A DNA stretch of 64,000 bases. It comes from Bacillota bacterium. GTDB taxonomy: Bacteria > Bacillota_I > Bacilli_A > RF39 > UBA660. Positions within the stretch are counted from its first letter, which is position 1. The number at the start of each line of letters is the position of its first letter. Shown here in pieces: positions 26,078 to 63,429 of this stretch. A program made the position numbers and the translations under genes. Location of the stretch: positions 27,328-91,327 of the forward strand of contig SVAN01000002.1 of NCBI GenBank assembly GCA_015059375.1, in the 5' to 3' direction. The notes beneath the pieces were generated by a model. It saw nothing but the letters and a program-made list of their open reading frames with translations, did not search any database and was not told the origin of the DNA.

Positions 26078-28015
26078 CTATTCTTTATCTTTTATTTCAA
26101 AAAGATATATGCTTAAAATAAGAAGGCCAAACGCGAAAATAACAATAGTTATTAAAGACGGTATAGAAACGGAGAAATATATTATTTCATAATAACTAGA
26201 TAAGACCGCTAAAAGATTATTAAGAAAATGCAAAATCATAGGAACAACAAGCGATTTGGTTTTGATATATGTATAGGCTAACATTAACCCCAATATAAAA
26301 GCAAATATTGATTGCAACCAATTCAAATGATATATTCCAAAGATTAAAGCACTACAAATTATTGCTATAACACTTCCGAATTTCTTTTGAAAAGAATTAA
26401 AAATAACTCCTCTAAAAAGGATTTCCTCAGAAATTGCCGGTAGAACCGCTACTACCAAAACTGACATCAATAAATTATCAAAAGACAAAAAAGATTCAAA
26501 AACGCTATAGTCTTTAACAACACTTGGAAAAATAATTGCTACAAATTGAATAATAAAGTTAGCGATTATGTAGACAGCAATATACATCATTAATGAATAA
26601 CAAAATTTAGAAAATTCAAACTTATTTATTTTAAGTCCTTTTTTAAAATCGAAATTAACAAGTGTCCCAGAAACTAATACAACTAAAGCAATTGTAAAAG
26701 GCATTATTGAAACCAAGAAATATTTTGAAGTATTAATAAAAATAAGCGAAAAATACATAGCTAATAGATATGTTATTACTGCCATAAATATAGAGGCCAA
26801 TACACTAAAGTACACCTTTTTGCTTTTGCCATTTTTAAAGCTTAAATAAAGCATATTTTTAGTGTTAAATAAAATATCCTCTTGATTGTACAACTTTGAA
26901 ATAATTATAATTAGTAATATAGAATATATAATTGTTGATGCAAAAGTTAAAATAACAAAAATAAAATCAATGTTGGTTGCTAATGCATTATTAAATAAAA
27001 GTGATATATTCACAAACGGAATTAAAGCATATTTTAATGATGCATTCACACCAAACATCGGAAGCAATGAAATAAGTGTAACAAATAGTTCTAAAGGATA
27101 CAAAGAATTTTGAGCTTCCTTTAAATTTTTAGAAAAAATTGTAATACTAAGAAGAAGGCCACTGAAAAGAAGCGAAATAAGCAAAATTGCAATCAAAAAA
27201 ATTAATAAACTTTTAAAGCCAATTGTTAACCCACTTACTCCTAGCATACTAAGTGTATTTCCAGCAAAATACATGGTACCAAATAGCGAAATATACGTCA
27301 AAATTCCGGACATCGAAGATAAAGCAAAAACCGTTATAAACTTACTAGTAATTAACTCCGATTTTTTAATAGGCAAACTTAACAACGTTTCCAAAGTTCC
27401 TTTTTCTTTTTCTGAAGTAGTTACATCTATTGCAACAGAAAAACACACTGAAGAGACAATCATAATTAAAGCCATCGAGATAACTGAAGGAATTAAACTT
27501 CCCATCTCAGTTACACTCTCTTGAACAAATGTAACATTAAAAGAATTTTTTATTAATTGATAATCAACATTTAAATCATTAAGTGTGTTTTCAATATACA
27601 ACTCACGATAATCTTTATAAATATTTTCCACAATAATACTACTAGCAATAAAACTACTATTACTTTCATCATAATGTAGTTCATAATTATTACCATTATT
27701 GATTACGTACACGCCAATTTCATCATTATCAAACATCTTTTTTAACGAATCCACATCATCATAAATAATAGTTATTTCATAATCATCCGAATATTTGTTT
27801 ACAAAATGTTGAAAGTCATCAGTCACATGATAATTAACCCCAAATTTAATAGTATCATCGACTTGTGTAAAGGTCGTCATTATGATACTCATCATCCCAA
27901 TTAATAGTGGAAAGATTAAAAGTGGCAATAAAATCATTATTAGAAACGATTTGCGATCACGAATAATATTTAGAAATTCTTTCTTTAGTAAAGACAAAAT
28001 TACATTAAATCTCAT
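26078..28015 (-). CDS. ABC-2 (NatB-like) permease fused to a CPBP/CAAX intramembrane protease domain
   Basis: N-terminal ABC-2 permease topology. C-terminal CPBP motifs EEILFRG, FGIYH and HFLNN. Confidence 0.8.
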   Translation of the reverse strand: MRFNVILSLLKKEFLNIIRDRKSFLIMILLPLLIFPLLIGMMSIIMTTFTQVDDTIKFGVNYHVTDDFQHFVNKYSDDYEITIIYDDVDSLKKMFDNDEIGVYVINNGNNYELHYDESNSSFIASSIIVENIYKDYRELYIENTLNDLNVDYQLIKNSFNVTFVQESVTEMGSLIPSVISMALIMIVSSVCFSVAIDVTTSEKEKGTLETLLSLPIKKSELITSKFITVFALSSMSGILTYISLFGTMYFAGNTLSMLGVSGLTIGFKSLLIFLIAILLISLLFSGLLLSITIFSKNLKEAQNSLYPLELFVTLISLLPMFGVNASLKYALIPFVNISLLFNNALATNIDFIFVILTFASTIIYSILLIIIISKLYNQEDILFNTKNMLYLSFKNGKSKKVYFSVLASIFMAVITYLLAMYFSLIFINTSKYFLVSIMPFTIALVVLVSGTLVNFDFKKGLKINKFEFSKFCYSLMMYIAVYIIANFIIQFVAIIFPSVVKDYSVFESFLSFDNLLMSVLVVAVLPAISEEILFRGVIFNSFQKKFGSVIAIICSALIFGIYHLNWLQSIFAFILGLMLAYTYIKTKSLVVPMILHFLNNLLAVLSSYYEIIYFSVSIPSLITIVIFAFGLLILSIYLFEIKDKE

Positions 28016-47368: not shown

Positions 47369-47498
47369 TCCCATACATACCTATTTAGTTATTATATAAA
47401 ATTCATTAAAACCTAGGTAAATAAAGGGTTTAGTAGAAGTTTGTATAAATCGATATTACTATCATTTTATTAAAATTTACTACTAAATTATCATCAAG

Positions 47499-47523
47499 TG
47501 ATACGTTTTTGATACGTTTTTTT
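47499..47523 (+). repeat. tandem GATACGTTTT(T) repeat (putative integrase arm-type site), left arm
   Basis: gtGATACGTTTTTGATACGTTTTTtt. The same tandem recurs at 63053-63076 and 63221-63243. Confidence 0.6.
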
Positions 47524-48060: not shown

Positions 48061-48074
48061 CTTACAAACTTACA
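48061..48074 (-). repeat. TGTAAGTTTGTAAG motif, copy 1
   Basis: Exact 14-mer on the minus strand, 15 nt downstream of the XRE gene stop. Confidence 0.7.
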
Positions 48075-48379: not shown

Positions 48380-48620
48380 AGTTTTACCACCACCTTATGT
48401 AGTTTAATTATAAGGATTTCACTTTATGATACACACCTAGTCAAAAAGTGATATTATTTATATCTCTTTTAAATTCTGGTTAATGTTTTTAGTATTTTAA
48501 TGTATTTATATTTCAAAGGTATTTCGTTTAATAGGGATTAAATGGGATATCTTTTTTATATATGTTAAAGTTTATAAAAACTGATTATAATAATCTAATG
48601 AATTTAGAAAGGTTGATTTG

Positions 48621-49028
48621 ATGAATGATATTATATTTGATGATACAAAGAACGAAAACAATAAACTCATTTATGTATATAGTGAAGATAAAGACAAAAG
48701 AAATAAAATCTTAAAAGTTATAAATGATTCTCTACTAAATACAAGATTAGCAGTGATGATAAATACAAAAGAATTTATAGATAATAAGAATATTCTTGAA
48801 GATATAAAGAATAATGATATTGATACTTTTATAGTTGATGATATTGAACTATTAAGTAATGATTATGAATTACAAACTTTATTCTTTAATACATTTAATC
48901 ACTTATATACTTATGATAAAAAATTAATATTACTATCAAGTCTATCTCCGACTAAACTTATTGGATTTAATAAGAGATTAAAAGCAAGATTATCTTGGGG
49001 TAAGGTTTATTGTTTAGATGATATTTAA
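48621..49028 (+). CDS. DnaA AAA+ domain-III-only homolog lacking a Walker A P-loop
   Basis: IDTFIVDDIELL, LQTLFFNTFNHL, KKLILLSSLSP and RLKARLSWG parallel DnaA LLIDDIQF, EEFFHTFN, QI.LTSD..P and RL.SRF.WG. The P-loop position reads YSEDKDKRNK. Confidence 0.65.
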   Translation: MNDIIFDDTKNENNKLIYVYSEDKDKRNKILKVINDSLLNTRLAVMINTKEFIDNKNILEDIKNNDIDTFIVDDIELLSNDYELQTLFFNTFNHLYTYDKKLILLSSLSPTKLIGFNKRLKARLSWGKVYCLDDI

Positions 49029-51645: not shown

Positions 51646-53004
51646 TTGAGAGGAGTATGTAGTGTGGTTAATTCTAATATTATAAGAAAGATAAATGATT
51701 TTTTTAGCAAAAAAAAGGTTATTAAACATATTATATTGTTATTATTATTTGGAATAATAACAGGATTTCTTTATGTATCTAATGATATATTTATGCTTAG
51801 AGCTAAAATTATAGTTATTGTTATAGTTATATTAATTTATTCTTCTATACTACTATGTAAAAGTTTTTATAAAATAGATGATAAATATAACTGGGATAAG
51901 CCTCCAAAAATATACTTTTATGTTAGTATGTTTCTACCTATTGTAGGTTTTATAATGTGGTGTGTATTAGTAAATCATAAACCTAATTCAGCAAAATTGA
52001 CTATTAAAGGTTGTTTATGCAGTTTATTATTACCTATTTTAACATTTATAATAAGTTTACCTATATATTTTGTTAGCGCAGGTATCTCAAGTACATTAAG
52101 AAATACTATATATTCTGATAGTTATACTGAAACTTATAATATTGAATTAATATATAATCAAGATGCACACATTGTAGAAGCAGATGATTTAGATGTAAAA
52201 ATAACATTTAAGGGATATAAAGATGATTTAGAAAAATTTAAAAAAAGCGAAGATTTTAAGAAATATTTTGAAAGTAATCAACTATCTATAAGTTTGAAAA
52301 CTTGTCAAGAAACTTGTGATTTATCTTCAATAATTGAATACTATGTTAAAAATAGTACAAAAAAATATAATTTAAAGTATAAAATAGATAATAAAATTAT
52401 TGCTAAAATATATGACAAAATATCGACTGTTATAACTGTTTATAGTGAAGAAGATACACATATACAATATGATACATTAGTAGATTTGTATTTATATTCT
52501 AGTGATGATAAGGTATATGCTAAAATAGGTAATAAAATTAAATTAGCTCAAAATTTATCTATAAACGCAAAAGAAAGTAAAGATATAATTATATTCGGAA
52601 CAAAAGAGCAATTAAATAATATTCCACATAATGAATATTTCAAAATCAAAGTAGTTAAAACAGGAACAAAAAATGTTTTCTTAAATTACAAAGAAGTTAA
52701 TGTAACTGAATTTGAAAAAATATATGAAGAATACAAAAATTCATTTGTTAGTAAAGAAGTAAATATCAAAATAAATACTTTAGGTAGTAGTGATTTAAAA
52801 ATCATTGATATAAAAACTTATCCTGAAAAAATAAAAATTACTGGACCAAAAGAAGTAATTGATAATATAGAGATTATAGAAATAGATGTTAATGTCGATG
52901 GATTATCAGAAAATAAAACTTTAAAAGTAACTATACAAAAACCAAATGGAGTACAAGAAATAAGTGAAAAAGTTGCAAATGTAGAAATATATGTAGAAGA
53001 TTAG
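51646..53004 (+). CDS. multi-TM protein with extracellular C-terminal YbbR-like domain
   Basis: 4-5 TM helices. C-terminal PEKIKITGPKEVIDNIEIIEIDVNVDGLSENKTLKVTIQKPNGV...VANVEIYVE fits the YbbR repeat pattern. The start may be the GTG at 51664. Confidence 0.55.
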   Translation: MRGVCSVVNSNIIRKINDFFSKKKVIKHIILLLLFGIITGFLYVSNDIFMLRAKIIVIVIVILIYSSILLCKSFYKIDDKYNWDKPPKIYFYVSMFLPIVGFIMWCVLVNHKPNSAKLTIKGCLCSLLLPILTFIISLPIYFVSAGISSTLRNTIYSDSYTETYNIELIYNQDAHIVEADDLDVKITFKGYKDDLEKFKKSEDFKKYFESNQLSISLKTCQETCDLSSIIEYYVKNSTKKYNLKYKIDNKIIAKIYDKISTVITVYSEEDTHIQYDTLVDLYLYSSDDKVYAKIGNKIKLAQNLSINAKESKDIIIFGTKEQLNNIPHNEYFKIKVVKTGTKNVFLNYKEVNVTEFEKIYEEYKNSFVSKEVNIKINTLGSSDLKIIDIKTYPEKIKITGPKEVIDNIEIIEIDVNVDGLSENKTLKVTIQKPNGVQEISEKVANVEIYVED

Positions 53005-53015
53005 GAGTTTTTTAG

Positions 53016-53531
53016 ATGAAAGATGTATTGTATAATGAGAAAAACGATTTCAATGAAATAACTATAAAAGAAGATTTTATTAAATTAAAAAAAGACAATA
53101 ATGTTAAAATATATTACTTTGATTCTATAGATTTAAAAAATAGTTTTAAAACTCATATAGAAAATGATTTTGTAGAAATTTCACTATTAAGCAATAATAA
53201 AGAAATTCTATTTATGATTAAAAAATCTAATTTTTTAAAATTTAAAGAGGTAATAAATCCTATAAAAAGAGGTTATTTAAATCAAGATTTTTCCTTTGAT
53301 GAAAAAGTAGATAATAACGAAAAAAATTATAACCCTAGTGAAGATGATGATGTTTCTCCAATATATGGCGTTATAGGGTTTTTTATACCTATCATTGGGT
53401 TTATTATATGGTTAGTATTAGTAAATACAAAACCTAAATCTGCAAAAATTGCAGGAATTAGCGCATTAATTGGATTTATAATTAATAGTATAGTTTATTT
53501 CTTTTTGCTTGGCCCTATTATATTTGAGTAA
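53016..53531 (+). CDS. membrane protein sharing a TM motif with the preceding gene
   Basis: PIIGFIIWLVLVNTKPKSAK versus PIVGFIMWCVLVNHKPNSAK in the 452 aa protein. Confidence 0.5.
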   Translation: MKDVLYNEKNDFNEITIKEDFIKLKKDNNVKIYYFDSIDLKNSFKTHIENDFVEISLLSNNKEILFMIKKSNFLKFKEVINPIKRGYLNQDFSFDEKVDNNEKNYNPSEDDDVSPIYGVIGFFIPIIGFIIWLVLVNTKPKSAKIAGISALIGFIINSIVYFFLLGPIIFE

Positions 53532-53544
53532 AGAGGTTTGTTAA

Positions 53545-54063
53545 ATGAGTTTAATTAAATGTCCTGAATGTGCAAAAGAAATAAGTAATAATACAAATGA
53601 GTGTATTTATTGTGGTTATAGATTAAAAAAAGAAGTTAATATTAAAAATAATAGTAAAGTAATAATTCATAGTTATAATGACCCATATTTGTATAGTCCA
53701 GCAATTAAAGTTTATAATAATGGAGAGTTTATAACTGAAATTAATAAAGGTCAAACTATATCATTATCTATTGATAATGACACTATTTTTACTTTTAAGC
53801 ACTCAAATAAAAGTATAGATGTCAAAGTTTTGTGTAATAGAATAACTGAGATACAATTATTTTATACAAGAGGTGTTGCCTTAAGAGCAATTACTAATAT
53901 TCAAGGTAAAGATGCAGAATCTAATGTTATCAATAATAAGACTTTTCAAGAAACTATAAGAAAGCAAAAAGCAATTAATAACATTTGGATAACTATTGCA
54001 ATTATCTTAATTATAATTGGTTTAATATGGGGAATTATTGATGGTATACAAGCAATAGGTTAA
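53545..54063 (+). CDS. zinc-ribbon protein with C-terminal TM anchor
   Basis: N-terminal CPECAKEISNNTNECIYCG and a C-terminal hydrophobic helix. Confidence 0.55.
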   Translation: MSLIKCPECAKEISNNTNECIYCGYRLKKEVNIKNNSKVIIHSYNDPYLYSPAIKVYNNGEFITEINKGQTISLSIDNDTIFTFKHSNKSIDVKVLCNRITEIQLFYTRGVALRAITNIQGKDAESNVINNKTFQETIRKQKAINNIWITIAIILIIIGLIWGIIDGIQAIG

Positions 54064-55293: not shown

Positions 55294-56256
55294 GTGAATA
55301 ATGATATTACTATAATAGATAGTAATACTTTGATTACTATTAACTCAAATCAAGAAATAATTAATAAATGGTTTAAAATGTCTGAATTGACTAATAAAAA
55401 TACCAAACAAACTTATTTGGAAGGACTTTGTAAGTTTGTAAGTTTCATAAAAGAAAAAGGAATTGTTAATCCTACAAGTGAAACTATAATTGATTTTAAA
55501 GAATTTTTAATGAATAGATATTCTAATTCATCATCATACAATTATTTAAGTGGAGTAAAAAGTTTTTATAAATTTTTAGAACTACAAAATATAAGTCAAG
55601 ATATTACAAGAGGAATTAAGTTACCAAAAATTCAAAGAGGAAATAAAAAAGACTCTTTAACTTTAGACCAATTAAAGAGTTTGTTCTCTATTTTGAATCA
55701 AGACACTTTATTAAATGCACGAGATTGCTGTATAATTCAATTAATGATTAGAACTGGTTTAAGAAGTTGTGAAGTTATTGGAGCAAATATTGAAGATATT
55801 CAAAATAAAGAGGGAGAAAAAGTCTTGTATATCAAAGGTAAAGGACATACAGAAAAAGATAATTTTGTAGTGATAGAGCCAGACTTAATGAATATCATAG
55901 ATAATTACTTAAATAAGAGAAAGAAATATATAGATAAAGACCCTTTATTTATAAGTTTAAGTAATAATACTTATGGAGAAAGATTAAAAAGTATTAGTTT
56001 TAGAAAGATAGTCAAAGAAAAATTAAGAGAAGCAAATATTGATAGTAATAGAATTAGCACTCACTCTTTAAGACATACTGCAATTACTCTTGCACTAATA
56101 TCAGGTTCAACTTTAGTAGAAACTAGAGATATGGCGAGACATACAGATATAAATACTACTGCTGATTATTTTACAAATCTACAAAGAGTACAAAATAGTC
56201 CAGAAGCAAAAATAGGTAAATTTATTAAAGAAAATATCACTTCTGATATAAATTAA
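55294..56256 (+). CDS. XerC/XerD-like tyrosine recombinase (internal)
   Basis: RTGLRSCEV (Arg I), HSLRHTAIT (H-x-x-R) and ARHTDINTTADY (catalytic Tyr region). GTG start with RBS agaaagagg. Confidence 0.85.
   Translation: MNNDITIIDSNTLITINSNQEIINKWFKMSELTNKNTKQTYLEGLCKFVSFIKEKGIVNPTSETIIDFKEFLMNRYSNSSSYNYLSGVKSFYKFLELQNISQDITRGIKLPKIQRGNKKDSLTLDQLKSLFSILNQDTLLNARDCCIIQLMIRTGLRSCEVIGANIEDIQNKEGEKVLYIKGKGHTEKDNFVVIEPDLMNIIDNYLNKRKKYIDKDPLFISLSNNTYGERLKSISFRKIVKEKLREANIDSNRISTHSLRHTAITLALISGSTLVETRDMARHTDINTTADYFTNLQRVQNSPEAKIGKFIKENITSDIN
55429..55442 (+). repeat. TGTAAGTTTGTAAG motif, copy 2 (inside recombinase CDS)
   Basis: Exact 14-mer. Confidence 0.7.
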
Positions 56257-56330: not shown

Positions 56331-56344
56331 TGTAAGTTTGTAAG
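56331..56344 (+). repeat. TGTAAGTTTGTAAG motif, copy 3
   Basis: Exact 14-mer, intergenic. The upstream flank ttatataaaaa is shared with copy 4. Confidence 0.7.
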
Positions 56345-56350
56345 TCAAAT

Positions 56351-57442
56351 TTATAAAATTTTAGAATTTTTACATAATTCTATTAGTAACATTTCATCAT
56401 TTTTAGAAGAATCTTTAAAACATGATTTTATAGCATTAGTATTATTAATCTGTTTGTTAATTTCTTCATTGTTTAATTCTTTAAGTTTACCTACTAAAAT
56501 TTTACAAGAATTATTTAAATTATTTCTAGTGTTGTTTTTGTGAAAGTTTGGGTCCTCATTAAAACAACTACTGCAAAGATTTTTAGTTAGTCTGATTGTT
56601 GGTATTGAACATCTATGACATATATTAAAGATTGTACTATTAAGATAAACACAATTTAAAAAATAATAGACTATTGCTTGAACCAAATTGTTAGTTTCAA
56701 TGTAATTTTCATTAAGGTTATTTATAATTTGACTATTATATTGTTTGTAAGATGAAATATATAAATAATATTCTTGTTTAAAACATTTGATATAATAATT
56801 TAATTCTTCAACATATATTTTAACTTCTTGTAATTCATTAAAACCCATAATATTATTTAAATGAAGTTTATCATTTTTATTTAGTTTAGTATCAATAATT
56901 TTTTTAATTTCTGCTAATACATATATAGTAATTGAAGTAAAAATTAAATCTTTAGCTCTAACAGCTAGAGATATACCGTTATTGTGACTTTCTTCAATAA
57001 GCTCTTTATCTATATTTTCATAGTAAGGTAACCCATTTTTATGACAAAAGTCTATAATTAAATCAAATATAAGTTTATCTTCAATTAATTTATCATAATT
57101 TTTAATTTTAATAACGTGATTAGTATTTGGTTCTATATCATCATATAAATTAAAATCTATGTTATTTTTTTCTTCAAATGTATTAGTACCTTTTAAAGAT
57201 AATAATACTATTTTCATATCTTTTCTCTTTTTAATAAATATTTTACTAAAATAATCTATACCTTCAATTTGAAGGTATAATTTTTTTCCTAAATTACATA
57301 ACTCTTTAAATTTAGTTTCTAAATCTTCAATTTTTGTATTATATGATTCATTTCCAAAGCCCTCAATAATATAATAATTAAATATTTTTTTTAAATTATA
57401 GTTTTCAAAAGTATAAACATTTCTTTTAAGATTTAACCTCAT
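56351..57442 (-). CDS. hypothetical protein, sole long antisense-oriented gene of the element (cargo candidate)
   Basis: 363 aa with a C-terminal CHRC...CSSC pair and its own RBS aaaggagg. Confidence 0.5.
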   Translation of the reverse strand: MRLNLKRNVYTFENYNLKKIFNYYIIEGFGNESYNTKIEDLETKFKELCNLGKKLYLQIEGIDYFSKIFIKKRKDMKIVLLSLKGTNTFEEKNNIDFNLYDDIEPNTNHVIKIKNYDKLIEDKLIFDLIIDFCHKNGLPYYENIDKELIEESHNNGISLAVRAKDLIFTSITIYVLAEIKKIIDTKLNKNDKLHLNNIMGFNELQEVKIYVEELNYYIKCFKQEYYLYISSYKQYNSQIINNLNENYIETNNLVQAIVYYFLNCVYLNSTIFNICHRCSIPTIRLTKNLCSSCFNEDPNFHKNNTRNNLNNSCKILVGKLKELNNEEINKQINNTNAIKSCFKDSSKNDEMLLIELCKNSKIL

Positions 57443-57692: not shown

Positions 57693-58181
57693 TTGTGGTT
57701 AATGGAACATGTTATGCAAATAACAGATTATGATAGAATTAAAGGGAATGAAGAAAGTGAATTTAATGAAAGAGCGAGAAGACGTCTTGAAATAAAGAAA
57801 AAATTCCGCCAAAATGAGCGTTGTAAAGGTACTTATGACCCAAAAGAAGGAGTTTATAATGTAGTTATTGGCCAAATTTCTATTAAAGAAAATAGAAACG
57901 GCAATTCTTATATGCAATTTGTTTGTCACAACCTAGATAAGAAAGAAAAATTATATGCTTCTTATTATTTAACAGATGGCACAGATGAATCTTCAATAAC
58001 TGATTTAAGATGTTTACTTGATGAATTTAACCAAGATGATTTTACTGATTATGAAATAGTTGATGATTATGCTATATTAGAAAGATTACAAATACTAATT
58101 GGTGAAGAAGCTAAATTAGTAGTTGAAGACCAAGATGGTTATATGTCAGCGAAGTTATACAGAGAGATTCCAAATGAATAA
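57693..58181 (+). CDS. DUF669-like putative ssDNA-binding protein, translationally coupled to polB
   Basis: GVYNVVIGQISIKENRNGNSYMQFVCHNLD pattern. Its stop overlaps the polB start. The start codon is uncertain. Confidence 0.4.
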   Translation: MWLMEHVMQITDYDRIKGNEESEFNERARRRLEIKKKFRQNERCKGTYDPKEGVYNVVIGQISIKENRNGNSYMQFVCHNLDKKEKLYASYYLTDGTDESSITDLRCLLDEFNQDDFTDYEIVDDYAILERLQILIGEEAKLVVEDQDGYMSAKLYREIPNE

Positions 58182-59976
58182 TCTTATATATTATGACATA
58201 GAAGTTTTTTGTCAAGATTGGCTATTTATAGCCAATCTTGATGAACACTTTATTGTAATTCATAATGATAAAGATAAATTAGATAATTTTATAAAGAAAC
58301 ATAAAAATTACTGGTATGTTGGTTATAATAATTATCATTATGATGACTTAATATTAACAGATATTCTTAACGGAAATAATCCGTATTATTTAAGCAAAAT
58401 GATTATTAATAAAACTGAAAATATTAATATTGATGTAATTCCAAATTTTAAAAGTTTAGATTTAATGCAAGATATTCAAAAAGAAAATAGTAATACCTTT
58501 ATGAGTCTAAAGAAGATTATGGGAAATTTAGGATTATCTATTGTCGAAAGTTCAGTCTCTTTTGATATTGATAGACCACTTACAACATTTGAACTTGAAG
58601 AAACAATAAAATATTGTTCTAATGATGTATTAGGAGTAAAAGTATTATATAAATATAGATATAAATATTTTGAAACAAAATTTACACTTATAAATGAGTT
58701 TGATTTACCTATTGAAACAATTAGATTAGATGAAAATAAATTAGTGTCATTAATCTTAAAATGTAAATGGTTTAAGGAGCCAAGAGATTATTTATCTTTT
58801 GATTATTGTAAACAAATCGATTTTAATTTAATTCCAAACGAAGTATTAGATTTTTACGCTGATATAGAATATAAGTATTTTAAGGGTATGGATTATAAAA
58901 AAGCTATTATTAGTGTTGGTAAAAAAGGAAAATTAAATACAAAACTTTTAGGAGTTCAAACCAACTATGGTTTAGGAGGTTTACACGCTTGTTCTAAAGC
59001 ACGAATGTTTGTAAATAATATTATGCAAATAGATGTGAGTTCTTATTACCCAACACTTATGGTTAATAATGAATTTTATAGTCGTTCTTTTACAAAACCA
59101 GAATTATACAAAAGTATTTATAACAAAAGAATGAAATTAAAAGAAGTTGATAAGTTACGTTCCGATGCGTATAAATTAATTTTAAATAAACCTATTGGCT
59201 GTATGCGTAGTGAAATGATTATGAAAGATTTTCATAATGCGAATAATATTATAGTTAATGGGCAGTTGATACTTACTCAATTAGTTATGGAACTTAAAGA
59301 TTATATTATCTTATTACAAATAAATACTGATAGTATTACTTTCAAATATAATAAAAGAAACTACGATAAAATATTAAATATTATCTGTGACTTTGAAAAG
59401 AGGTTTAATCTTAAATTTGATAAAGATAAAGTTAAGTTTTTATACCAGAAAAATGTCAATAATTATTTTTTAATTATGGAAGATAATAAAATGAAATTTA
59501 AAGGACAAGACTTTAAAAATTATGATAAACATGACTTTATTTATTTAAATAATAGTCGAAGTATTATAAGTAAATGTCTAGTTGAATATTATAAGAATAA
59601 AACTCCTATAGAAGAAACAGTTAGAAAATGTTATGACAATGATGAAATAGATAGATTCCAATTAATAGTATCCTATGGAAATAAATATGACAAGTGCTTT
59701 TTAGAATATCAAGGTAAACTTATCGAACAACCACAAAAAGTTAATCGTGTATTTGCAGTGAAAAATAATGAATACGGATTAATTTATAAGTGTAAAAAAG
59801 TCGATAAAGAACAAGATAAAAATACCTTTGAACAAAATGGTTGCTTTTATAAGAAAGAGAAAATGCCTAATTCTTTTGAACACAATTATATATTTAATGA
59901 TGATATATCAAAGTTCGATAAAGCGTTATTAGATTTAGATTATTATATCAAAATTTGCAAGAAGGAGTTAAAGTAA
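58174..59976 (+). CDS. compact family-B DNA polymerase with 3'-5' exonuclease domain
   Basis: ExoI YYDIEVF, ExoII NNYHYDD, ExoIII YCSNDV, motif A DVSSYYPT, motif [10 protein letters not shown], motif C NTDS. Start set at MNNLIYY. Confidence 0.8.
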
Positions 59977-59977
59977 A

Positions 59978-61498
59978 ATGAAAGATTATTATAAAATTTT
60001 AGGAGTAAGTAAAAATGCTAGTGTTGATGAAATAAAAAAAGCATATCGAAAACTAGCAAAAAAGTATCATTCTGATAATAAAGAAACTGGCAATGAAAAA
60101 AAGTTTAAAGAAATCCAAGAAGCATATGATACATTAAATAATGAAGAAAAGCGACAAGCATATGATACATTTTGCAAATCCAATACTAATTATGAGAAAA
60201 CTACAAATGATGATTATAAAAAAGATTTAAATGCTATGTTTAAATCATATGCTGAAGATGATAATTTGTATTTTATAACATACCTTGCTGAATATTTAAG
60301 TAAAACATATTGTTTTAAATTATATAATGGTTTATTATATGTTAAGTTTGATAAAAAGTATATTAATAATGAAAAAGAAATAATACAAAGATTAAATCAA
60401 GATATAAAACTTACTAAAAGACATTTTAAGGAATTGATGTATCAATTAGAATTATACGCAGAAAAAATTACAGACCAAGTTAATAAAATTCGATTAAATA
60501 ATGGAATATTAACTTTAAGTGATAAAGGTATATACGAAGTAATTGAAGATGATGGTAGTTTTTGTCCTTATAATCTAGATGTAGACTATAATGCAGATTT
60601 AACAGATGAAAAGGTAAATAATTTTTTAAATGATGTTAGTTGTAATAATACAGATATACTTAATATGTTAACAGAAATGATAGGCAGTATCTTAATTACT
60701 GAACCTAAATCACAATTTATGTTTTTTATTCACGGCGTTAAAGGTAGAAATGGTAAAAGTACATTTACTTCTGCGTTAAGGGAATTTGTTGGAAAAGATT
60801 TATCTTCAAATGTTAGTATCACAGGTTTTAAGGATGAAACTAAATTAAGTTCTTTGCGAGGTAAGATTCTTAATATTTGTGATGACGCTGACTACGAAAA
60901 AATATATCTAGAACGTTCACAAACACTTAAGTCATTAGCGAGTGGTGAGTTAATAAATTGTCGCCCGATTTATAGACATCCAGTTAGTTTTTTTAATACT
61001 GCAACAATTATTTGTACTACAAATACTATGCCTGAATTTGCAGATAAAAGTGGTGGAACTCGTCGTAGATTAATTATAATTGAATTTAATATGGTTGTAG
61101 ATAAAAATAATAATAATCCAAATTTACTTGATGAATTAACAACTAATACTGCTAAAACAACATTTTTAAATATTGCTATTAAAGGTATGAATAGATTATT
61201 GAATAATAACTATTATATTACCGAAAATGAAACTCTTACTAAAACTTTAGAAGAATATTATCGAAGTAGTGATACAGTTAAGGATTTTATTGATAGTGGT
61301 GCAGAAATCGAAAATCAAATAGTTGCCAATGTATATAACGCTTATGAAACATTTTGTGATAAAGTAATTTGTCGTGAAAAAGAAAGCAAAAATGTTTTCG
61401 GTATGCGCATGAAACAATATGGATATATTTCTAAAGTTGACACAAAAACAAGAGATGATAGAAAAAAAGTTTCTCAAAGAATTTATATAAAAAAGTAA
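59978..61498 (+). CDS. J-domain :: D5_N-like :: SF3 (P4/D5-type) helicase fusion protein
   Basis: N-terminal [31 protein letters not shown]...[19 protein letters not shown]. Walker [11 protein letters not shown], Walker B NICDDAD, motif C ICTTN and RRRLIIIEF. Confidence 0.85.
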
Positions 61499-61499
61499 A

Positions 61500-61512
61500 T
61501 GTAAGTTTGTAA
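61500..61512 (+). repeat. TGTAAGTTTGTAA motif, copy 4
   Basis: 13-mer beginning 2 nt after the helicase stop codon. Confidence 0.65.
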
Positions 61513-61583: not shown

Positions 61584-61874
61584 ATGGAAGATATACGAAA
61601 TATGAAAGTTGGAGACTTTTTAGATTTACTGACAACATTGATTAACAATAAACAAGAAAATGATACAGAAAAAAAGTATTTATCTAAAAACGAAGTTTTA
61701 GAGCAATACCCATTATTTACCGAAAGTAGTTTATCTAAAGCTGTTAAATTTCAAGGTTTAGAATATATTAAATCTGGAAGATGTAGATACTATGCAAAAG
61801 ATTCAATAGAAAAATGGCTTGAAAATCAAAAACAAAAAGAAATTTATAATCGATTTGAAGGAATTAAATTTTAG
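61584..61874 (+). CDS. xis: excisionase-family HTH protein
   Basis: Small HTH protein (KYLSKNEVLEQYPLFTESSLSKAVKFQGLEYIKSGR.RYYAKDSIEKWL) immediately upstream of int. Confidence 0.6.
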   Translation: MEDIRNMKVGDFLDLLTTLINNKQENDTEKKYLSKNEVLEQYPLFTESSLSKAVKFQGLEYIKSGRCRYYAKDSIEKWLENQKQKEIYNRFEGIKF

Positions 61875-61894: not shown

Positions 61895-63055
61895 ATGAAT
61901 ACTAAAGATGAAGATATGAAATATATTACAATTTTACCTAATGGTTCAAAAAGAATTAGTGTTAGAATTGGACGAGGTATTGATGGCAAATACCTTTATG
62001 ATACTAAACAATTAGGTAAAGAAGTAGATATAAAAGAAGTAAAAAAACTTCGTGATAAAATGGTAGAAAATAAACAAAATATAAAGAATATAGATGGAAG
62101 TATGTTAGTAGAGACTTTTGCTAAAAAATGGCTAGTTGAAGTTGTTTTAGCACAGTCTCCTAATACTTATGATGATAATTACTCAAAATTAAAACATCAT
62201 ATAATTCCTTATTTTGGTACAAGTAAATTAAAAAATATCACTCAAGATAAAGTTCAAGAATTAGTAAAATATTTAACCACTAAAAAAGCAATGAATAAAA
62301 AAGATTCATTATTAAGCGTCACTACTATAAAACATATAGTAAATGTCTTAAGTTCAATGATGAATTATGCTATAGAATTAAAAATGATTAAAACTAATCC
62401 TTGTCACGATATAAAATACCCAAAAGGAGAAACTTTTGAAAAAGAAGTATATAACGTTGAAGAAATTGGTATTTTAATAAATCATTTAAAACTATTACCA
62501 TCTCAAAATAAAGCTTTGTATATTGTATTATTAACAACTGGATTAAGGCGTGGTGAGTTAATAGGATTACATTGGAAAGACATAGATTTTAAAAATAAAA
62601 CAGTATCTATTAAAAAAGCATATTATAAAACAAAGGTAAGTGGTAAAGTAACAACTAAACCAAAATCTAAATATAGTATTAGAACAGTCGGTTTAAGTGA
62701 TTTAGCTATTGAATGTTTATTAGAATATAAGAAAGAACAAGATATATGGAAGAAAAAATATTCAAGCGAATGGAAATCTCCTAATGTATTTACAGATGTA
62801 TTTGGAAATATTTTAAGTCCTGATGCAGTGTCTAGTAGATGGACAAGACTAGTTAAGAAAATACCTGTTAAAAATATTAGACTACACGATTTAAGAGCAA
62901 GTTATGCAACATATTTAGTTTATAGTGAAACCCCAATAGCAGATATATCTAAAACTATGGGACATTCAAGAATAAGTACAACTGTTGATATGTATGTAAA
63001 AAGTTACGATAAATATTATGAGTCAGCACGAAATAATATTAATAAAATTCGTTGA
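61895..63055 (+). CDS. int: phage-type tyrosine integrase
   Basis: TTGLRRGEL (Arg I), HDLRASYAT (H-x-x-R) and GHSRISTTVDMY (catalytic Tyr), with an N-terminal arm-binding-type extension. Adjacent to the att end. Confidence 0.9.
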   Translation: MNTKDEDMKYITILPNGSKRISVRIGRGIDGKYLYDTKQLGKEVDIKEVKKLRDKMVENKQNIKNIDGSMLVETFAKKWLVEVVLAQSPNTYDDNYSKLKHHIIPYFGTSKLKNITQDKVQELVKYLTTKKAMNKKDSLLSVTTIKHIVNVLSSMMNYAIELKMIKTNPCHDIKYPKGETFEKEVYNVEEIGILINHLKLLPSQNKALYIVLLTTGLRRGELIGLHWKDIDFKNKTVSIKKAYYKTKVSGKVTTKPKSKYSIRTVGLSDLAIECLLEYKKEQDIWKKKYSSEWKSPNVFTDVFGNILSPDAVSSRWTRLVKKIPVKNIRLHDLRASYATYLVYSETPIADISKTMGHSRISTTVDMYVKSYDKYYESARNNINKIR

Positions 63056-63076
63056 TACGTTTTATTGATACGTTTT
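63053..63076 (+). repeat. tandem GATACGTTTT repeat, copy overlapping the int stop codon
   Basis: tGATACGTTTTATTGATACGTTTT. Confidence 0.6.
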
Positions 63077-63133: not shown

Positions 63134-63207
63134 TGGAGGAGCCAGTCGGATTTGAACCGACGATGGAGGTGTTGCAGACCTGTGCCTTACCACTTGGCTA
63201 TGGCTCC
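63134..63207 (-). tRNA. intact tRNA-Cys (anticodon GCA) carried inside the element
   Basis: GGAGCCA-TA-GCCAAGTGGTAAGGC-A-CAGGT-CTGCAAC-ACCTC-CATC-GTCGG-TTCAAAT-CCGAC-TGGCTCC-T-CCA. Confidence 0.95.
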
Positions 63208-63220
63208 ATTTTTTGATAAC

Positions 63221-63243
63221 TGATACGTTTTTGATACGTTTTT
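63221..63243 (+). repeat. tandem GATACGTTTTT repeat, right arm
   Basis: tGATACGTTTTTGATACGTTTTT, preceded by the half-copy GATAAC. About 80 bp inside the att core. Confidence 0.6.
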
Positions 63244-63323
63244 AATAATTTTATTAAATTTTTATTTAATCATTCCTTTAATTACGAGGGTTTGCAACGC
63301 ATTTATACTTAAGAGTACGAGGC

Positions 63324-63360
63324 GTTGCAGACCCACGCCTTACCACTTGGCTATGGTTCC
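63324..63360 (-). pseudogene. 5' half of the disrupted tRNA-Cys (positions 1-37), other att junction
   Basis: The minus strand reads GGAACCA-TA-GCCAAGTGGTAAGGC-G-TGGGT-CTGCAAC, followed by non-tRNA sequence. Confidence 0.8.
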
Positions 63361-63429
63361 ATAATACATTATATGCTTTTTCAAGCAATATAATTGTATT
63401 ATATTTTCTTTAGACTGTCAACTTTTATA

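Follow-up and report, generated by a model that had tools for sequence, protein, structure and literature searches.

A single gene in which an N-terminal J-domain is fused to a superfamily 3 (SF3) helicase lies in a 64,000-nucleotide (nt) stretch of contig SVAN01000002.1 (assembly GCA_015059375.1, a Bacillota bacterium; positions 27,328 to 91,327), which is called the window hereafter. The gene belongs to an integrative element of ~15.7 kb beside a tRNA-Cys gene, in a low-GC bacterium of the Bacilli from gut or rumen, and the coordinates of all features are collected in Table 1. Its open reading frame (ORF) begins with ATG and is free of interruptions. A GGAG at 59964-59967, 10 nt 5' of this ATG, has the right spacing for a Shine-Dalgarno sequence. 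The TAA stop codon of the preceding polymerase gene (59974-59976) is found only 1 nt ahead of the same ATG: the polymerase and helicase genes are thus translationally coupled.

The fusion is genuine, one uninterrupted gene without frameshift or assembly artefact. The protein of 506 amino acids (aa) recurs unchanged in seven contigs that come from no fewer than five samples (four from JGI and one from ENA), including its unusual HSD tripeptide, which is hence not a read error. Three sister clusters of fusion genes (P0002-P0004, the window's own cluster being P0001), at 72-80% identity, have the same unbroken frame of J-domain, linker and helicase, and were recovered on at least 15 more contigs that were assembled independently (JGI, ENA and Logan). 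These identical copies and diverged sisters rule out the possibility, raised in a sequence-only reading of this DNA, that a frameshift or a faulty assembly had joined two separate genes.

Over residues 3-63, the protein matches the full Pfam DnaJ profile (PF00226, profile positions 1-63) with an E-value of 8.5e-23 and a score of 80.7 bits, for a cutoff of 27.8. The best sequence match of this part in the PDB is a bacterial DnaJ (6jzb, E 7.5e-20). In an AlphaFold2 (AF2) model of the fusion protein, built from 14 aligned sequences, four helices are predicted (residues 4-8, 16-30, 40-53 and 56-70), with a confidence score (pLDDT) of 83-92, and the tripeptide loop falls between helices II and III. 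The linker that follows is predicted to be disordered (pLDDT < 50 at residues 69-80), and both its sequence and its length differ among the aligned fusions. In all, the disordered tether from the J-domain to the helicase measures 20-40 residues.

The second half of the protein is a helicase of the P4/D5 type. Residues 251-363 match Pfam DUF5906 (PF19263; 65.9 bits vs. a cutoff of 27.6), a VapE-like family matches as well, and residues 170-462 match the C-terminal part of the NCBIfam family TIGR01613, "phage/plasmid primase, P4 family" (166.8 bits vs. 108.7). Across the 14 aligned sequences there is no variation at the motif residues G253, G256, G259, K260, T262, D302, D303, D305, N349, R363 and R364. 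The flanking domains are less apparent in Pfam: D5_N (17.3 bits, under the cutoff of 22.4) and Pox_D5 (15.0 bits, under 21.4) are both detected below threshold, each at the expected position. The D5_N-like region is nevertheless well folded in the AF2 model, and aligns to the primase-helicase of SaPI5 from residue ~359-385 onward. At the C-terminal domain, relatives match Pox_D5 and RFX_DNA_binding; this domain is presumed to bind DNA. Among solved structures, the SaPI5 primase-helicase (7OLA, residues ~359-769) comes closest, and it is matched by the single sequence (phmmer, E 6e-19), by the profile (E 4.7e-26) and by the model (Foldseek, E 9.4e-15). It is followed in the Foldseek ranking by vaccinia D5, mpox E5 and C962R of African swine fever virus (ASFV); the fold matches to SaPI5, D5 and E5 span 340-450 columns. 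Neither an archaeo-eukaryotic primase (AEP) nor a Toprim primase domain was found in the fusion protein with Pfam and NCBIfam.

What the sequence-only reading had observed in this protein is borne out by these comparisons, and its interpretation is supported in part. It had described a J-domain in the first ~65 aa, joined in a single gene to a primase-less P4/D5-type SF3 helicase. The PF00226 match over the full profile, those to DUF5906 and TIGR01613, and the lack of any AEP or Toprim match agree with this description, and the SF3 motifs that it quoted are all in place as invariant columns. The structure prediction that it had called for gives a four-helix J-domain and a helicase fold of the D5/E5/SaPI5 type. 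Its D5_N-like region is only weakly visible in Pfam, but the fold matches to SaPI5, D5 and E5 agree with it.

By profile and fold the N-terminus is a J-domain, while the HPD tripeptide that is invariant in J-domain proteins is absent from the window's copy, which has HSD instead. This substitution had been pointed out from the sequence alone, and it is indeed present in the window; it does not, however, extend to the fusion in general. In the three sister clusters, the middle codon of the tripeptide is CCT or CCA and encodes the proline of HPD. Among the 187 J-domains gathered in this analysis, 186 carry HPD and only that of the window carries HSD. Since the sister fusions have proline codons, HSD goes back to a single C-to-T change fixed in the lineage of the window, and is not a trait of the fusion. 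The rest of the Hsp70-interaction surface is kept in the alignment: the basic helix II (YRKLAKKY), H31, D33, F43 and the KRQAYD motif. The proline of HPD ends helix II and thereby constrains H33 and D35 to a common orientation (PMC13012618), and it makes a hydrophobic contact with P419 of DnaK (PMC8215388). A serine in its place should loosen the geometry of the histidine and the aspartate and drop one contact with DnaK. The J-domain of the window is therefore probably a weakened or re-tuned activator of DnaK rather than a dead one.

The architecture is very rare. In a collection of 5.8 billion protein clusters, PF00226 and PF19263 occur together only in P0001-P0004 among the matches listed. 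With HMMER, none of the best 147 helicase representatives out of 1.84 billion carries a J-domain, even at E <= 0.1, and hence no independent fusion of a J-domain to an SF3 helicase was found among them. This search, exhaustive over the representatives, was made with a profile of the fusion only, recovered many D5-type helicases and lists the best 150 representatives; a distant J-domain joined to a distant helicase, with a score under ~122 bits, would fall outside these. The representative search also returned a 679-aa protein (P0123) with six tandem J-domains (E ~1e-15 each), which is unrelated to the fusion.

In phages and plasmids, the two halves (at least 80% of the query) are never united in one record among 50,697 phage genomes and 72,556 plasmids, and none of 80 viral J-domain ORFs, all of at most 424 aa, bears a helicase. 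The helicase clade itself is practically absent from the 2.9 million viral contigs of IMG/VR. An alignment starting from residue 17 had hinted at J-bearing members of phrog_864, which no phage record bore out. No report of a bacterial or phage J-domain-helicase fusion was found in the literature, in a search that did not reach the review of Barriot et al. 2020; a survey of the architectures of J-domain proteins in 280,000 sequences mentions no helicase or primase partner, and DnaJ is mentioned in neither of two surveys of viral and mobile-element replication proteins. The sequence-only reading knew of no described bacterial counterpart, and none was found in the literature or in sequences outside one tiny clade. 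The concern that the architecture might be common and already characterised in phages can be set aside for the phage, plasmid and viral-contig collections, which are without the fusion, and for the literature.

Selection was estimated by the Nei-Gojobori method on the four fusion genes. The ratio of nonsynonymous to synonymous substitution rates (dN/dS) is 0.10-0.14 for the J-domain, 0.04-0.19 for the three helicase segments and 0.7-2.0 for the linker, ratios that are rough because dS, from 1.1 to >2, is near saturation, and from which the branch of the window is not separable. They indicate a J-domain under purifying selection and a linker evolving neutrally. The J-domain of the window contains no frameshift, stop codon or indel; it is 70-75% identical to those of the sisters, which are 66-74% identical among themselves.

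Table 1. Features of the fusion gene and of the surrounding element, with positions in the window.
Feature	Position	Strand	Basis
J-domain-helicase fusion gene, 506 aa, stop codon inside coordinates	59978..61498	+	ORF listing, sequence
J-domain, residues 3-63	59984..60166	+	Pfam PF00226, PDB DnaJ matches, AF2 helices, dN/dS 0.10-0.14
HSD tripeptide (CAT TCT GAT), replacing canonical HPD	60068..60076	+	sequence, codon alignment
Variable disordered linker, ~residues 66-83	60173..60226	+	pLDDT, alignment, dN/dS
N-terminal helicase domain, D5_N-like, ~residues 84-238	60227..60691	+	sub-threshold Pfam D5_N, SaPI5 alignment, model
SF3 ATPase core	60728..61072	+	DUF5906, TIGR01613, invariant motif columns, Foldseek
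Walker A, residues 253-262	60734-60763	+	
Walker B ICDDAD, residues 300-305	60875-60892	+	
Motif C ICTTN, residues 345-349	61010-61024	+	
Arginine finger RRRL, residues 362-365	61061-61072	+	
C-terminal helix/strand domain, winged-helix-like, Pox_D5-like, ~residues 440-506	61295..61495	+	sub-threshold Pox_D5, AF2 secondary structure
TGTAAGTTTGTAA, candidate iteron/origin element, 2 nt past helicase stop	61500..61512	+	exact 13-mer count
SSB-like (DUF669-like) protein, 155 aa, overlaps polymerase start	57714..58181	+	phrog_378 SSB, weak, E 1e-4
Family-B DNA polymerase, 600 aa	58174..59976	+	phrog_1252, E 6e-105; start from gene call in L094
Helix-turn-helix (HTH) protein, 96 aa, excisionase-like	61584..61874	+	weak HTH_17; PHROG HTH families
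Tyrosine integrase, 386 aa, island right end	61895..63055	+	Pfam Phage_integrase and SAM-like; phrog_1, E 7e-67
Small XerC/D-like tyrosine recombinase, 320 aa, within element	55294..56256	+	Pfam
tRNA-Cys(GCA) adjoining integrase	63134..63207	-	ARAGORN
Left 26-nt direct repeat, two tandem TGATACGTTTT units, putative attachment (att) site, left island boundary	47496..47521	.	repeat search
Right 26-nt direct repeat, putative att site	63218..63243	.	25/26 identical (96%) to left copy

The element stands out from the surrounding DNA by its composition: from ~47.5 to 63.2 kb, the GC content goes down to 0.21-0.25 and the GC skew changes sign. Besides the two putative att sites, tandem pairs of TGATACGTTTT are seen at a third site (63049-63076), and a disrupted copy of the 5' half of tRNA-Cys (63310-63362, minus strand, 89% identity over 44 nt) follows ~155 nt past the intact gene. 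These additional pairs and the partial tRNA copy suggest repeated integration or a duplicated att/tRNA unit.

Related loci share a conserved core composed of an SSB-like (single-stranded DNA binding) protein of 146-166 aa, a polymerase of ~600 aa, the helicase, an HTH protein of ~80-100 aa, conserved in its position between helicase and integrase, and a large recombinase. Upstream of this core, they have a small recombinase as well as a reverse-strand gene that is variable. In the window, the small recombinase is XerC/D-like and probably resolves multimers, by analogy with pipolins (PMC11551731); a serine resolvase fills its position in related elements. Both recombinase positions in fact alternate between tyrosine and serine types among the related elements with an unchanged replication module. 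Serine examples are found in locus L004 (3613-4236 and 10762-12498) and in locus L099 (3703-4308), to be compared with 55294-56256 and 61895-63055 in the window. No virion gene was found in the element within the window, and the element was likewise not found among viral contigs, which makes it an island or satellite that is integrative and probably replicates as an episome. Its module of SSB-like protein, family-B polymerase (PolB), helicase, excisionase and integrase is phage-derived, because related polymerases occur in temperate Firmicute siphophages together with full primase-helicases.

The polymerase is not covered by a Pfam model. A profile of 34 homologues matches PolB structures only, and in its AF2 model (pLDDT 92.6) the top Foldseek matches are archaeal-type PolBs that extend RNA or DNA primers. 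The phrog_1252 family to which it belongs is widespread in temperate Firmicute phages. Its motif C is invariantly NTD, not DTD, and K-x-K-G is found at the KxY site. Two identities that would account for the missing primase were considered. An A-family polymerase of the CcPol type is ruled out by the profile and the fold, which match family B only; a primer-independent piPolB is ruled out as well, the fold not being phi29-like and the piPolB plasmids being missed by tblastn. The SSB-like protein, conserved in all related loci, is homologous (E 3e-6) to a DUF669 protein encoded ahead of PolB in an Anoxybacillus prophage. Candidate sources of the primer are the host DnaG or priming by the PolB-SSB pair. 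A Finegoldia magna plasmid protein annotated "primase C-terminal domain-containing" (NC_010371.1, 162381-163193) matches the palm region of the polymerase (residues 268-541), and may be a PolB palm fused to a primase or helicase.

The variable reverse-strand gene is represented in the window by a 363-aa gene (56351-57442, minus strand) with a C-terminal CxxC...CxxC pattern, no family match and four close homologues in the 5.8 billion clusters. Its counterparts (L001 2488-3696, L004 4244-5428, L099 4354-5586) encode 325-410 aa. Genes at this position lie on the reverse strand in four of five loci and are non-homologous, save those of L001 and L004 (32% identity). As a missing primase or initiator this gene was rejected, for it matches no family and is not conserved among the related elements; rather than a core replication gene, it resembles a hypervariable one for cargo, regulation or conflict. 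PADLOC defence models match none of the cargo genes of the element. At the left end of the island, a 136-aa ORF (48618-49028, plus strand) matches PF00308, the DnaA ATPase domain, over no more than its C-terminal two-thirds (profile positions 57-159, E 2e-13) and may be a truncated DnaA/DnaC-like remnant. The ~1.1 kb upstream of it (47.5-48.6 kb) holds no ORF of at least 100 aa. The cargo region further includes paralogous segments, with a 66-nt repeat at 79% identity (51931-51996 and 53382-53447); the ORFs concerned (51646-53004, 53016-53531 and 53545-54063) are a YbbR-domain gene followed by small membrane or zinc-ribbon genes.

Just past the helicase stop codon is the 13-mer TGTAAGTTTGTAA. 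It occurs in four exact copies in the window, all within the island (48062-48074 on the minus strand; 55429-55441, 56331-56343 and 61500-61512 on the plus strand), and at three of these sites TGTAAG is doubled, at a spacing of 8 nt. In four of five related loci, TGTAAGT/ACTTACA is found in one or two copies 2-28 nt past the helicase stop, for a background of ~0.2-0.8 per kb on both strands. In the SCCmec cassettes, the helicase Cch2 binds iterons just 3' of its own gene, where priming begins (PMC7581432). By analogy, TGTAAGTTTGTAA is a candidate helicase-binding site or origin.

The N-terminus of the helicase has apparently changed hands during evolution. Relatives of ~610-640 aa have a Prim-Pol or PriCT primase domain ahead of the helicase. 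At least 120 aa precede the helicase in 96 of the best 147 representatives, and those sampled carry Prim-Pol or PriCT. Within the clade of the fusion, the proteins measure 430-450 aa without J-domain or primase and ~505-520 aa with the J-domain. Since the distant relatives carry Prim-Pol or PriCT at this place, the primase domain was lost first and the J-domain gained at the same N-terminus afterwards, in one sub-clade. Class-A DnaJ proteins that are complete, with zinc-finger and C-terminal domains, share 73-78% identity with the J-domain at their N-termini. This identity points to capture from a host dnaJ gene, and the source was evidently the class-A DnaJ of a Firmicute.

The helicase, a member of the P4/D5/SaPI-Rep/Cch2 lineage, is the replicative helicase of the integrative element and probably loads itself; it would work as a hexamer. 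The sequence-only reading had reasonably suggested that the J-domain could recruit the host DnaK for loading or remodelling. For the J-domain, an in-cis recruitment of the host DnaK, to assemble, load, remodel or recycle the helicase at the origin, is the likeliest role and is given about an even chance. Every subunit would bear a J-domain, and a hexamer would thus display six of them on flexible tethers. These would recruit DnaK-ATP of the host and trigger its ATPase, after which DnaK would clamp onto the helicase or a neighbouring protein. Its action could do one or more of three things: convert inactive oligomers or aggregates into loading-competent subunits, help the helicase to assemble or to open its ring at the origin, for which the iteron TGTAAGTTTGTAA is a candidate, or recycle the complex. 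The SSB-like protein and the family-B polymerase encoded upstream would then copy the unwound DNA. The analysis shows the two domains and their tether, a fusion that is real and rare, the selection on the J-domain, its gain and loss, its place at the former primase site, the gene context, and a helicase family that recognises origins and loads itself. We infer that DnaK is recruited and at which step, as well as what the iteron and HSD do. Precedents are known in trans: DnaJ and DnaK act on lambda O-P-DnaB, P1 RepA and mini-F RepE, and Hsp40/Hsp70 act on E1, the SF3 helicase of papillomaviruses (PMC8215388). A bolder version is tentative and stays clearly short of even confidence: the bacterial element would have reached the solution of large T independently, DnaK would be a dedicated in-cis loading factor, and the series of HPD, HSD and J-less forms would reflect a tuned chaperone dependence.

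Several observations weigh against DnaK recruitment in cis, first of all the history of the J-domain. Three clusters of the clade (P0005-7) are J-less: these helicases of ~428 aa are ~80% identical to the fusions (81-87% over the helicase part), start exactly at the end of the linker and share the same gene order. In one such locus (L001), 10 nt separate the polymerase end from the helicase start; a separate J gene was ruled out there, as none of its genes is recorded with a DnaJ family. A tree was calculated on the helicase part only, with 1000 neighbour-joining bootstraps and an explicit count of bipartitions. The clade {P0001-7} is recovered with 99.4% support, and within it the J-bearing P0004 is the sister of {P0001, P0002, P0003, P0005, P0006, P0007} with 99.3% support. 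Monophyly of the J-bearing helicases is found in 0 of 1000 bootstraps: the J-less ones nest within the J-bearing clade. The simplest history on this tree is one gain of the J-domain at the base of the small clade, and later one loss or recombinational removal. Because of this nesting and of the common gene order, the J-domain is dispensable for the module and accessory to it: it was lost without loss of the element. It is, though dispensable, useful enough for long conservation.

Other points on the same side concern the window itself and the evidence at hand. The window's own copy is without the canonical HPD, and an alanine at P34 of E. coli DnaJ reportedly abolishes function in vivo, a result ascribed to Genevaux et al. 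in 2002. The near-saturated dS, already mentioned, blurs the selection on the J-domain. In locus L102 the motif does not directly follow the helicase gene, and TGTAAGTTTGTAA could be a site for a recombinase or regulator, or a terminator element, rather than an origin.

The loss of HPD raises the question of decay. The proline-to-serine change might have inactivated the J-domain of the window, functional in the ancestor and in the HPD sisters, and turned it into a neutral appendage heading for loss, which we consider unlikely. HSD is unique among the 187 collected J-domains, the proline has roles both in the structure and in the DnaK contact (PMC13012618, PMC8215388), and complete loss has a precedent in the nested sub-lineage P0005-7. 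The domain is, however, no more diverged from the sisters than these are from each other, the proline aside, and it is intact in frame and length and identical in the seven contigs from at least five samples. Moreover, J-like domains without HPD can retain regulatory roles, as does Pam16, and this also speaks against a mere relic.

An accessory J-domain, gained and then lost with the replication genes unchanged, would also fit a function in conflict or adaptation. The helicase, abundant and multimeric, would then be a scaffold that captures DnaK for manipulation of the host: its stress response, a protein of another element or of a helper phage, or a counter-defence. A non-replicative precedent is the J-protein Rki of phage RB43, which redirects DnaK toward sigma-32 (PMC3486835), and variable cargo and the fast-evolving reverse-strand gene adjoin the module. 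A free regulator, on the other hand, does not need to be fused to a helicase at the position of the former primase, in a gene coupled to the polymerase. Free J-proteins are the usual solution, given that the 80 viral J-domain ORFs examined all lack a fused helicase, and no cargo gene corresponds to a PADLOC defence model. Host manipulation is an improbable explanation.

More doubtful still is a structural role independent of DnaK, in which the J-domain would tag the protein for solubility, form an N-terminal collar or dock the polymerase or the SSB-like protein, and replace the structural function of the lost primase. It does sit at the position of the lost Prim-Pol, and HSD is tolerated in one lineage. 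But conservation falls on precisely those residues that interact with Hsp70 (the basic face of helix II, the histidine and aspartate of the loop, and F43), HPD is retained in three of the four clusters, and a long disordered tether is ill-suited to a fixed collar. As for an artefact, in which a frameshift, a chimeric assembly or a wrong start would have joined two genes, its probability is negligible: the unusual architecture was the only prior suspicion and no support was found, while the ORF is unbroken behind a well-spaced Shine-Dalgarno sequence and the polymerase stop, the protein recurs unchanged on seven contigs, and the three diverged sisters from independent assemblies give a codon alignment consistent across the junction.

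In-cis recruitment of DnaK can be set against known replication systems. The helicase half is nearest to the self-loading Rep proteins of staphylococcal pathogenicity islands (SaPI) and Cch2 of SCCmec; its closest solved relative, in sequence and in fold, is the SaPI5 primase-helicase (PDB 7OLA/7OM0). As in the window, these helicases belong to integrative elements of Bacillota with adjacent site-specific recombinases. Iterons just 3' of the helicase gene are described for them (PMC7581432, PMC9371898), and the window has a candidate at that place. In contrast, their helicases are fused to or preceded by an AEP primase or a PolA-SSB primase (PMC10061031). A J-domain is reported on none of them; here it is combined with a DUF669-like SSB and a family-B polymerase. 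The CcPol-MP-Cch2 operon of SCCmec also has a polymerase and an SSB-like protein beside the helicase (PMC7581432, PMC10061031), but there an A-family polymerase forms the primase with the SSB-like protein, whereas the polymerase of the window is of family B.

The helicase half shares the fold of the P4-family primase-helicases, including D5/E5 of poxviruses and C962R of ASFV, and scores above the TIGR01613 cutoff. The same type of PolB is paired with a P4-family protein in the Paenibacillus phages Wanderer and LincolnB, in Staphylococcus HHU-22 and in an Anoxybacillus plasmid prophage. These proteins have 600 to more than 800 aa and an N-terminal AEP/Prim-Pol, while that of the window is without primase. 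Pipolins, too, are small tRNA-associated integrative elements with their own polymerase and two recombinases that swap between tyrosine and serine types. The motif departures of piPolB (TTD and KTRG; PMC5695915) recall NTD and K-x-K-G of the window, as similar but not defining residues. The fold of the polymerase is nevertheless nearest to the archaeal RNA/DNA-primed type and not to phi29/piPolB, and neither pSE-12228-03 nor pLME300, both piPolB plasmids, is among its tblastn matches.

Among chaperone-dependent replicons, phage lambda, P1 RepA, mini-F RepE and E1 of human papillomavirus use a J-protein that is a separate host protein, while here it is built into the helicase. The proposed logic would be alike: Hsp70 and a J-protein remodel an initiator or a helicase (PMC8215388). 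RB43 Rki is likewise a J-domain encoded by a mobile element and presumed to engage the host DnaK (PMC3486835), but it is a stand-alone protein without helicase fusion.

In bacterial chaperone-aided replication initiation, the J-protein is, to our knowledge, always a separate host factor. If DnaK recruitment in cis is true, the protein would count as the first helicase of a prokaryote to carry its own J-domain, and would offer a minimal, genetically tractable model for the Hsp70 requirement of large T and E1. It would also show that a replisome component can have DnaK recruitment hard-wired into it by selection, convergently with polyomaviruses. The significance is bounded by a function that is deduced, by a tiny and uncultured clade, by a J-domain that is dispensable and by a substitution in the window's copy that is probably weakening. 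As an architecture, the fusion is new for class-C J-domain proteins. The small integrative elements of gut Bacilli that carry it, with a phage-derived SSB-PolB-helicase module and no recognisable primase, have no earlier description that was found. Natural controls exist in the same gene context, namely HPD forms, the HSD form and ~80%-identical J-less forms, and because of these the role of Hsp70 for an SF3 helicase is directly testable in a soluble system of small size.

The comparison with large T antigen, which the sequence-only reading had drawn, holds for the layout but not for homology. Large T consists of a J-domain, a disordered region, an origin-binding domain and a helicase, and its J-domain activates Hsc70/Hsp70 through HPD (PMC11720896). 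Similarly, the protein of the window has an N-terminal J-domain of ~70 residues, a disordered linker and an SF3 helicase that by analogy would be hexameric and act on its own origin. On the other hand, large T has an invariant HPDKGG (PMC11720896), compared with HSDNKE in the window and HPDN[KQ]E in the sisters. The Pfam families of large T (origin-binding domain and helicase) are not found in the fusion protein at E <= 0.01, and large T is absent from the 50 best fold matches, which are of the D5, E5, SaPI5 and ASFV type instead. Beyond the generic J-domain and SF3 folds there is no homology, the host is bacterial, and the would-be partner is DnaK: the likeness between the D5/P4-type helicase of this element and the large T antigen of polyomaviruses is convergent, and one of architecture only.

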